NCBI GenBank assembly: GCA_951406725.2
Contig: OX597829.1
Location: forward strand, 45,322,001 to 45,386,000
Direction: 5' to 3'
Origin: Octopus vulgaris
Taxonomy: Eukaryota
DNA length: 64,000 nt
Part shown: positions 10,925-13,900 of the stretch, in pieces
Layout of the letters: the number at the start of each line of letters is the position of its first letter
How positions within the stretch are numbered: position 1 is the first letter of the stretch
The notes under the pieces: generated by a model
Told to the model about the DNA's origin: nothing
The model's input: only the letters and a program-made list of their open reading frames with translations
The model's database searches: none
Position numbers and translations under genes: made by a program

Positions 10925-13900
10925 GTAAGTGAAGTGACTCTATATTTTTTAGCTTCTTTCTGTTTTTGCTAGTTTTTGTTTTTGTTTGATTTTGTTTTTC
11001 TTAATTCAGTGACTCTGTCAAATCTGTTGTGCTCCAATGTTCAGTTTTGGCATGGAGGCGCAATGGCCCAGTCGTTAGGGCAGCGGACTCGCGGTCGTAG
11101 GATCGCGGTTTCGATTCCCAGACCGGGCGTTGTGAGTGTTTATTGAGCGAAAACACCTAAAGCTCCACGAGGCTCCGGCAGGGATGGTGGTGATCCCTGC
11201 TGTACTCTTTCACCACAACTTTCTCTCACTCTTACTTCCTGTTTCTGTTGTACCTGTATTTCAAAGGGCTGGCCTTGTCACTCTCTGTGTCACGCTGAAT
11301 ATCCCGAGAACTACGTTAAGGGTACACGTGTCTGTGGAGTGCTCAGCCACTTACACGTTAATTTCACGAGCAGGATGTTCCGTTGATTCGGATCAACCGG
11401 AACCCTCGTCGTCGTAACCGACGGAGTGCTTCCATCCATCAGTTTTGGCCCCATGCACTCTTTCTCCTGTGCCTCAAAAACCTTTTTGCCATTGCCCTCT
11501 ATCAATACCCTCTCTGTGCTACTGCTGCACACACACACCTGTTTCAACTGATGGCCTATTACTATGTAGTCACCCTCAGGCACCCTTCTCACTTCCATCA
11601 GTATTGTGCACTAATTACTGTAGCCAGTCCTTCCTCTTTAGAAATTCCTTCTGGAATTTCTTAGCATGTTGCCCCCTGCCTGTTTTTTTTTTCTTGATAA
11701 CTCTTTAACCCTGATATCGGTTGTTTTGCAACAATTCAATCGAATGTTAACATCATGAATCTCACCAACCTCAGTATGTCTGCAAAAGACATGGACACAC
11801 ACTTTCCATCATCATCATCTAACATCCATGTTCTATACTAACAAGGATTGGACAGTTTGCCAGAATCTGATAGATCCAAGGATTTCATTATACTCAAATG
11901 TCTGCTTTGGCACAGTTTCCTACAGCTCGACACCCCTCATTAATGCTAACCACTTCATTCTGTGTAGTGGGTGGTTTCTTTTTTTTTTCTTTGTTTTCAT
12001 GTCGTCAGCATTTGTGAGATCACCATGCAATCCACAAGATTACAAACTCCTTAGGGGGAGGGGAAAGATACTGCTCTATGCTAGGAAATGGCGGGGGTTA
12101 ACCTTTTAGTATTCAGATGTAAAGCTTATTTATTCACATTGGTTTGAATTAATCATGTATTATCTTAAAGCTTAGAGATTTCAGTCATGTGGTTATATAT
12201 TTTTAGAATGAAATTGTAGGATAGTTGTAAGAGGCCTGATCTTTTTGGCTGGTTTAAGTGCTAAAGGGTTAATATATGAGACAAAGGAACAACAGGTTTT
12301 TGTTGTAGCAGAGCTACACGGTTGCTCACATTTAGTAGAGATGGTGAGGCCAAACCTATAAAAACAGAAATTGTGCTTATATATATATAAATCAAATTAG
12401 AGATAAAACCACTATTAAGCAAATCAAACAGTGAAAAACATAAACCAAAACATAGAAATGAAAATAATTAATATAATATACAAAATATTTTGTATATTAT
12501 ATTATATTATTTTTATTTCTATGTTTTGGTTTATGTTTTTCAGTTTGTTTGCCTAATAGTGGTTTTATCTTTAATTTATATTTATACTGTAAAATTAGAT
12601 TTAATCCTAAATCTAATTTTTCCCTGTAAGTTTGGATTTACTCCCTAATATTATTATTATTTATATATACATTTTCGCGGGGTTCTACTGTTCTTCTCTA
12701 TCTATCTCTCTCTCTCCCTTTCTCACGTTGTCTGCCATTCCCCCCTTCCATTGCTAAGAGCATTTCTAAGCCAGCCCGTCAGTTCAACCTTCGTCCCCCT
12801 TCCATTGCTAAGAGCATTTCTAAGCCAGCCTGTCAGTTCAACCTTTGTATATTCCCGTGTCAGGCCGAAGAACGAAATGTTTCCAAGATAAGAGTCTTTC
12901 TAATCTAATGTTGTGGTTGAGCTGTTTTGTTTTGTTTGTTTATTAGTTATTATTATTATTACTATTATTAGTACTAGTATTGTCCCTTTGATCCCCTGGT
13001 CGACAGTTCGCTTATTATTATTATAATTATTATTATTACTATTTTCAGCTTCGCCTCGTATTGCATATTATTTCTCCATACAGGGTTTTTTTTTTTTTTT
13101 TTTTTTTTTTTTTTTCAATGGCGGCCCATTTTCGCGGGGTTCTACTGTTCTTCTCTATCTATCTCTCTCTCTCCTTTCTCACGTTGTCTGCCATTCCCCC
13201 CTTCCATTGCTAAGAGCATTTCTAAGCCAGCCGTCAGTTCAACCTTCGTATATTCCCGGTGCACCCGCCCTTGCCCACCCCCACCACCAATACCGGATAT
13301 CTCTATATTTTTGCTCCATCTATACCGGATGTCGCTTCTCCCACCACCATTATAGGTGTCTACTCTTCGAACCCCCTCTTCAATGCGCTATTTCACCATG
13401 CATTACCCCTCTCTTGATATCCTACGTTCTACTTGCCTAGAACCTGTCATCATTTCTCTGAACCACCCCTCCCCACTGGTGCTCCCCTATATATTTCTGC
13501 CCCCCCCCCCCATAAAAGCACCATCCGAACGTGGCCGATGCCAGACCCCTCTGGCACCTGTGCAGGTGGCACGTAAAAAACACCCACTACACTCGCGGAG
13601 TGGTTGGCGTTAGGAAGGGCATCCAGCTGTAGAAACACTGCCAGACTAGACTGGAGCCTGGGGCAGTCCCGAGCTCCCCAGACCCCGGTCGAAACCGTCC
13701 AACCCGTGCTAGCGCGGAAAACGGACGTTAAACGATGATGATGATGATGATGATGATGATGATATATATCATCATCATCGTTTAACGTCCGCTTTCCATG
13801 CTAGCATGGGTTGGACGGTTTGACTGAGATCTGGAGAGCCAGTGGCTGCACCAGGCTCCAATCTGATCTGGCAGAGTTTCTACAGCTTGATGCCCTTCCT

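Follow-up and report, generated by a model that had tools for sequence, protein, structure and literature searches.

Retroposons with tandemly repeated parts include hominid SVA and TRE5-A of Dictyostelium, the latter with tandem A-modules. SVA is a non-coding composite that is transcribed by Pol II, has acquired sequence at its 5' end and contains a variable tandem stretch. It differs from the elements described here in being driven by L1, in ending in poly(A) and in having its tandem part in an internal position rather than at the 5' end. A closer design is that of the mouse L1 Tf, Gf and A 5' UTRs, in which tandem monomers of a few hundred base pairs are followed by a non-repeated tether (PMC6454616, PMC10620060, PMC11602158). 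The 5' ends of these elements are reported to lie inside a monomer, at a sense-strand word of the CCATNTT type; arrays are occasionally very long, and unrelated monomer types are found on one lineage. The YY1 site of mouse L1 Tf reads GCCATCTT, and 5' ends and RACE starts cluster nearby (PMC6454616, PMC10620060). Among 20 mouse 5' ends, 5 fell within and 7 near the YY1 core, and 14 showed a Py/Pu dinucleotide (PMC10620060). Altering one base of the GCCAT core was enough to eliminate binding or activity, the first G never being altered alone among the mutants considered here (PMC11602158). Replacement of the 5' UTR is well known in mammalian L1 (PMC5381506).

Three further systems are relevant. 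The sINR of human TATA-less promoters has the core CCATYTT, positioned between -10 and +5 relative to the start, and acts with Sp1 sites, which lie upstream; its flanks are important, and YY1 binds it in vitro yet is dispensable for its function (PMC2715227). Bipartite non-autonomous elements of the RTE group and SINEs with RTE tails, for instance WALLSI1/1A with their swapped 5' regions, are non-coding and combine an RTE-type 3' end and a microsatellite tail with an exchangeable 5' part unrelated to tRNA or 5S (PMC5786205). The A-module of TRE5-A is a 200-bp 5' promoter module that can be replaced by a foreign promoter, and a non-autonomous derivative of the element is moved in trans (PMC3159450).

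Here we describe two retroposon copies, A and B, in a window of 64,000 nucleotides of Octopus vulgaris (contig OX597829.1), the whole stretch of DNA analysed. The original prediction for this window was that both copies begin at a YY1-like CCATNTT motif inside unrelated monomers that serve as self-regenerating internal Pol II promoters. Our analysis suggests, with a probability of about 0.4, that both are non-coding, RTE-mobilised composites with unrelated heads, the monomers of which would be internal Pol II promoters starting at CCATYTT rather than at a YY1 site. The composites are built like the mouse L1 monomer promoter, tether included, but are set apart from it by the lack of the YY1 core and of the Py/Pu dinucleotide at their starts.

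Build and probable insertion of the two composites

Copies A (12670-13763) and B (47785/6-53910) are real composites, in both of which a head of tandem monomers is followed by a C-rich linker, a SINE-like body, a LINE-type 3' end and a (GAT)n tail. The features are as follows, with positions counted in the window.

12663..12669, no strand: TA run bordering the 5' end of copy A; together with 13762-13768, likely a target duplication
12670..13126, plus: full 457-bp monomer of head A, beginning CATTTT
Within 12670..13126, plus: 54-bp duplication (12741-12845), (TTA)n tracts and T30 (13086-13115) of head A
13114..13125, minus: GCCAT-core site directly upstream of the A start register, 9/12 to sINR and 7/9 to CGCCATNTT
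13126..13132, plus: CCATTTT at the monomer junction, the sole CCATNTT in copy A; sINR core present, YY1 GCCAT core absent
13127..13258, plus: partial second monomer of head A, 132 bp, 98% to the first monomer over 125 bp
13257..13513, plus: C-rich linker A, with colinear blocks of homology to linker B
13513..13733, plus: SINE-like body of A, about 220 bp, common to 23 other matches in the window
13734..13763, plus: (GAT)10 tail of A; next come ATATAT and the tail of an inverted, older copy of the body
13768-13931, minus: the older inverted body copy, tail-to-tail with copy A
39333..40971, plus: 3' part of an old RTE-type LINE, with the ORF end, a C-rich UTR split by a CR1-like piece, and then the same body as in A and B
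47765..47785, no strand: (TA)n run bordering the 5' end of copy B, its final T common to run and monomer
47786..52989, plus: head B, 21 monomers of 247/248 bp and a partial one of 16-17 bp
47788..47794, plus: CCATCTT, 2-3 nt inside the B 5' end, one per monomer, the preceding base C and not G
47952..47960, plus: GCCAT-core site CGCCATAAC, 166 nt into the B monomer
52984..52996, plus: junction between head and linker in B, which forms the perfect inverted repeat CCGCCA-G-TGGCGG
52990..53650, plus: C-rich linker B, about 660 bp, with short tandem duplications of 34-, 24-, 28- and 17-bp units
53647..53886, plus: SINE-like body of B, 91% identical to body A over about 180 bp
53887..53922, plus: (GAT)8 tail of B, then (AT)6

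The monomer unit is 457 bp in head A and 247 bp in head B. The partial second monomer of head A is without the 54-bp duplication and meets the linker at a shared CG. In head B, 15 of the 21 monomers are identical, and one and the same A>G variant recurs in monomers 5, 8, 11 and 17. The monomers are AT-rich (36-37% GC), and their CpG observed/expected ratios, 0.85 and 1.17, are not taken as raised above the 0.85 of a young LINE nearby in the window. That the two monomer types are unrelated, as had been proposed, was borne out by local alignment (score 31 vs 28.6 +/- 4.2 in shuffles; z 0.7), which detected no kinship. Two words shared by both, CCTGGTCGA and a (CT)n word, were considered as a sign of kinship and dropped, their circular order differing and the match being no better than in shuffles.

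In contrast to the heads, the linkers are homologous (0/200 shuffles, z 8.6), and both start with CGGTGC. A GC box opens each of them (2 of 5 plus-strand CCGCCC) and is found in neither monomer; the opening of linker A also holds a CACCC box, the word CCAAT and a C tract of four runs. Such four-run tracts, a minus-strand G-quadruplex pattern, number 4 in the window and are confined to the two linkers (13255-13282, 53001-53017, 53157-53183 and 53599-53626), two of them exactly at the head junction. The body has 24 matches of at least 80 nt in the window, of which only 2, A and B, carry the linker. Three other body copies (19228-19358, 22542-22842 and 56532-56766) have tandem repeats of a 62-129-bp GGCACGTAAAAAGCACC unit where the linker would be. 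CpG counts in the body are highest in A and B (13 and 12, vs 3-10 in 11 others, some of them shorter), and by their sequence A and B look like young members of two sub-lineages.

Neither copy has a stop-free frame of at least 160 aa, and six-frame translations inspected by eye revealed no ORF remnant. Where the two monomers of A meet (13118-13213), a hydrophobic frame of 31 codons starts with an ATG in the context CAATGGCGG; T/C-rich sequence probably accounts for it. An AT-rich 200-bp palindrome (12386-12586, 91% self-complementary, centre 12486/12487), possibly a MITE remnant, lies a short way upstream of copy A. Copy A and the older inverted body copy together form a long near-perfect hairpin (13689-13823) that matches several miRNA models below threshold; the 16 sub-threshold Rfam matches near A were set aside as this hairpin or simple repeats.

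The surroundings are rich in microsatellites and LINE remains. A near-complete L1/Tx1-like LINE (5336-10049, plus) has an ORF1 with a 24-bp tandem repeat, and its endonuclease, RT and zf-RVT domains are in separate frames. Another LINE (15501-18835, minus), which we take to be CR1-like, retains an open endonuclease-RT frame of 949 aa and an (ATT)n tail. A 301-aa stop-free frame without a Pfam domain (36749-37654, plus) is an exon of the orthologue of O. sinensis LOC115222616, to which its stretch 36806-37600 is 98% identical.

The 5' ends of both copies adjoin the end of a TA run, and (TA)n flanks lie on either side of each. Outside the B array, ends of TA runs account for only 0.15% (runs of at least 7) and 0.03% (at least 20) of positions, so the boundaries are probably insertion junctions and each composite was probably inserted as a single unit. 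The TA runs on both sides allow for a target-site duplication, the length of which is left unfixed by the microsatellite context. Two short body copies (3380-3503 and 37877-38034) are also bounded by TA runs on both sides, which makes TA targeting a habit of the body family.

The tail leads to the LINE partner. Body A closes, from 13693 on, with 41 nt that match the 3' terminus of an RTE-type LINE; in body B the LINE-type terminus starts at 53846. With the (GAT)n, these 41 nt match three animal-type stretches in bacterial genome bins (82-93% over 56-72 nt). In one, L003, the terminus directly follows the end of an RTE-type ORF, which is similar to the C-terminus of a named RT protein from a bivalve (tblastn E 0.009, 26 aa). 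The presence of animal retroposon DNA in three bacterial genome bins (L001:1230-1301, L002:1-56 and L003:1815-2001) is an observation in its own right: in L002 it sits at the contig end, after bacterial genes, and in L003 a long 80-bp tandem array lies immediately upstream of the LINE end. Linker and head were absent at all 3 loci found by the tail pattern, and a 23-nt block common to both linkers had 0 matches in the genome-contig collection searched.

Within the window, the ORF of the old LINE at 39333-40971 resembles single-ORF APE-RT-PHD proteins, and another such ORF fragment has relatives that are, for the most part, single APE-RT-PHD proteins about 1,000-1,100 aa long. RTE-2_OV of O. 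vulgaris is of similar size (1,109 aa; PMC9115989). The provisional label RTE-type for the LINE is drawn from this protein architecture and from general features of the clade. A 3' end in common with such a LINE and a microsatellite tail are what dependence on RTE predicts, and the composite is very probably a real RTE-tailed unit.

The 5' ends and the word CCATNTT

The contexts described in the original prediction are present. In copy A, AATGGCGGCCCATTTT occurs at 13117-13132, and the 5' end CATTTT at 12670 matches 13127 onward; copy B starts with (T)TCCCATCTTT at 47785/47786. Exactly one CCATNTT occurs per monomer in both monomer types, and both starts lie within 3 nt of it, as far as the claim of a common start at this word holds. 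It does not hold to the letter: the end of A falls one base inside CCATTTT and therefore is itself without the motif, B begins 2-3 nt before its motif, and the two starts are 3-4 nt out of register relative to it. The further claim that each head is n full monomers plus a partial one is true (1 plus 132 bp in A; 21 plus 16-17 bp in B), but almost every array whose ends differ in phase fits it, and it has no weight as evidence.

How much weight the position of the word can bear depends on how the question is put. For a motif named beforehand, the chance that both starts lie within 3 nt of the monomer's single CCATNTT is 4.3e-4; here n is 2 copies, and the word was picked after both starts had been seen. 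Two random registers would have some 6-of-7 word in common within 2-3 nt with a chance of 0.041-0.070, or 0.026-0.047 when low-complexity words are left out; with a panel of 19 known promoter motifs the figure is 0.035, falling to 0.0009 once Inr, TCT and GAGA, the degenerate patterns, are set aside. The two start contexts show no unusual similarity in local alignment, where 9-27% of random register pairs score as well. CCATNTT is not enriched in the window (62 vs 57.8 +/- 8.3 in shuffles, 22 of the 62 coming from the B array), and 48% and 15% of shuffled monomers contain one. It stood at the alignment start of 0/25 body intervals, five of whose starts were set by the reference cut and two of which were linker junctions, so that this control counts for little. 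Judged from sequence statistics, the coincidence at the start is suggestive and falls short of being established.

The identification of the word as a YY1 site is not supported on closer comparison. Both start sites read CCCAT and are without the GCCAT core of GCCATCTT and CGCCATNTT; they match CGCCATNTT at 7/9, both misses lying 5' of CCAT, and GCCATNTT occurs in neither monomer. GCCAT-core sites are found elsewhere, but they differ in strand and position between the two monomers. The minus-strand site directly upstream of A's start is absent from A's 5' end, and the CGCCATAAC of monomer B, which had been put forward in support, does exist at 47952-47960, with CGCCATAA lying 166 nt into the monomer and not at the start.

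The sINR core CCATYTT, in turn, is matched 7/7 at both starts and lies within -10 to +5 of the start site as read from the insertion ends. The sINR flanks GSCG...G and the upstream Sp1 site are missing (8/12 and 7/12), B's CCATCTT falls outside the broad YYANWYY initiator, and neither start has a Py/Pu dinucleotide (C/C in A; C/T or T/T in B in monomer context). Given CCCAT in place of GCCAT and a full CCATYTT core, the YY1 reading becomes improbable and, if the motif has a meaning, a generic initiator-like signal would be preferred over it.

Proposed promoter monomers and rival explanations

The mechanism that we favour, with monomers as promoters on an RTE-mobilised composite, can be set out in steps of unequal strength. 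Insertion into (TA)n in all likelihood took place by target-primed reverse transcription. One head was probably swapped for the other by template switch or recombination at the linker start, where A would have been joined via the shared CG and B via the short inverted repeat. Transcription would start in a monomer and run through the remaining monomers into the linker and the body, and an RTE-type enzyme would take up the transcript via the common 3' end and copy it into a (TA)n site. That the 5' ends mark transcription starts at CCATYTT is possible, at somewhat less than even odds. The AT-rich 230-270 bp upstream of each start may act as the promoter, kept only since the downstream monomer repeats it; the upstream T30 and TTA tracts of A would thus be lost in each round and supplied by the next monomer. 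Each round would cost a monomer, and unequal exchange would restore the number, a scheme that, together with the AT-rich promoter, we consider an even bet. The 21 units of B probably expanded in place after insertion, and the recurrence of the A>G variant in monomers 5, 8, 11 and 17 agrees with unequal exchange on a local scale, as has been proposed for a mouse promoter of 50 monomers (PMC6454616).

Transcription by Pol III is unlikely. The window contains no tRNA, the heads and linkers have no Rfam match, and the absence of a Pol III head follows from both; the copies accordingly have no tRNA-, 5S- or 7SL-derived head of the classical SINE kind. The T30 in head A would stop Pol III.

Several findings speak against promoter monomers: the case is built on two copies and on a motif picked afterwards, the monomers are AT-rich with a CpG level that is ordinary for young repeats, the starts are not Py/Pu and are 3-4 nt apart in register, the sINR flanks are missing, and the GC boxes lie downstream of the array rather than upstream as the Sp1 sites of sINR do. 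Loss of the 5' part is the rule in the body family, 22 of 24 matches being without the linker, and linker, head and body all contain tandem duplications of every scale (units of 17-129 bp), so that tandem heads require no promoter role. These same observations feed the view that the heads are passenger tandem repeats, acquired by read-through from a host promoter or grown by slippage, with 5' ends that are plain truncations and a CCATYTT that is a coincidence of pyrimidine-rich sequences. The truncation of most body-family members, the any-motif chance of 0.026-0.07 and the frequency of CCATNTT in shuffled monomers agree with it. It accounts less well for two starts that both hit the single CCATNTT of their monomer (4.3e-4, or 0.0009 on the non-degenerate panel), and for two lineages, with bodies 9% apart, that each bear a tandem head joined at the same point of the linker; a 5.2-kb array would also seldom escape random truncation, unless it grew later. 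On balance we regard passenger heads as doubtful, though a serious contender. Binding of YY1 at each start, setting initiation as in mouse L1 Tf, draws on the same-strand orientation, on the clustering of mouse ends at the core, on a DNA-binding domain of YY1 that is nearly invariant from insects to vertebrates (PMC1904287), on in vitro binding of sINR and on the presence of GCCAT-core sites in both monomers. Those sites are neither at the starts nor on the same strand and position, sINR function did not need YY1, and this explanation is improbable.

Other origins of the composites have been weighed as well. As internal-deletion derivatives of autonomous RTE LINEs, A and B would have a former 5' UTR as head and a former 3' UTR as linker and body. 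RTE elements do produce bipartite non-autonomous derivatives (PMC5786205), and the C-rich UTR between ORF and body of the old LINE (39333-40971) gives a weak colinear alignment with linker A (6/300 shuffles, z 2.3). Linker B gave no such signal (155/300 shuffles, z -0.1), the first scoring scheme gave none, nhmmer found the UTR with neither, and the composites lack an ORF remnant; we hold this origin to be slightly less credible still than YY1 initiation. It is compatible with the promoter-monomer explanation and shifts only where the monomers arose. A circular or lariat RNA copied by rolling reverse transcription, or a self-cleaving ribozyme fixing the 5' end in the manner of retrozymes and of LINEs with ribozyme heads, would suit the near-identical units of head B, and 5' ribozymes have been predicted in some RTEs (PMC5786205). 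The heads have no hammerhead-type CTG(A/T)NGA on the plus strand, Rfam matches nothing in heads or linkers, the predicted folding of the monomers does not exceed that of shuffles (z -0.15 and 0.09), and the unit ends, read from the sequence, fail to agree with splice or branch signals in both copies alike, which makes this origin very improbable. Splice-joined heads, a Helitron and a Penelope pseudo-LTR were dropped on inspection of the junctions by eye.

Meaning for octopus retroposons

Among described elements, the composites fit RTE-dependent non-autonomous elements with swapped 5' parts, and the long tandem heads are a new trait: heads of 0.6 and 5.2 kb are not among the features given for the WALLSI1/1A-type elements in the account cited here (PMC5786205). 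Mouse L1 differs in having ORFs and a poly(A) tail rather than a LINE-type (GAT)n tail, and in its CpG-island monomers, whereas the octopus monomers are AT-rich, their start motif is without the G of GCCAT and their promoter role is putative. sINR, defined in human genes only, shares the core and the nearby GC boxes, but its flanks are unmatched here and the GC boxes lie downstream, not upstream (PMC2715227). Unlike the octopus composites, TRE5-A.2 keeps ORF1 and targets tRNA genes (PMC3159450). No octopus element of this build was found in the published literature searched, a search that had Repbase and subscription papers outside its range. Motifs of the window had no match in the readable supplementary files searched, and identity of the body with the Ceph or Meta domain did not emerge from that search.

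In its fullest form, the proposal would be that an octopus non-coding retroposon twice captured unrelated Pol II promoters, multiplied them in self-renewing arrays and converged on CCATYTT, a reinvention of the mouse L1 design in a mollusc, on a SINE-like element without a Pol III head; we think this unlikely. If the motif is a coincidence, an ordinary non-autonomous retroposon with an expanded repeat remains. SINEs account for 11.6% of the genome of O. vulgaris, and among its recently active SINE families the majority are unclassified (PMC13282606), so such composites could hide among them. If the heads are promoters, they would show a SINE-like element running without a Pol III head, and monomer-array promoters would be recurrent in 5'-eroding retroelements and not a rodent oddity. 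A second system of this kind would permit a comparative test of monomer regain, which is still described as unclear in mouse (PMC6454616), and such composites could seed kilobase satellites, as at copy B.
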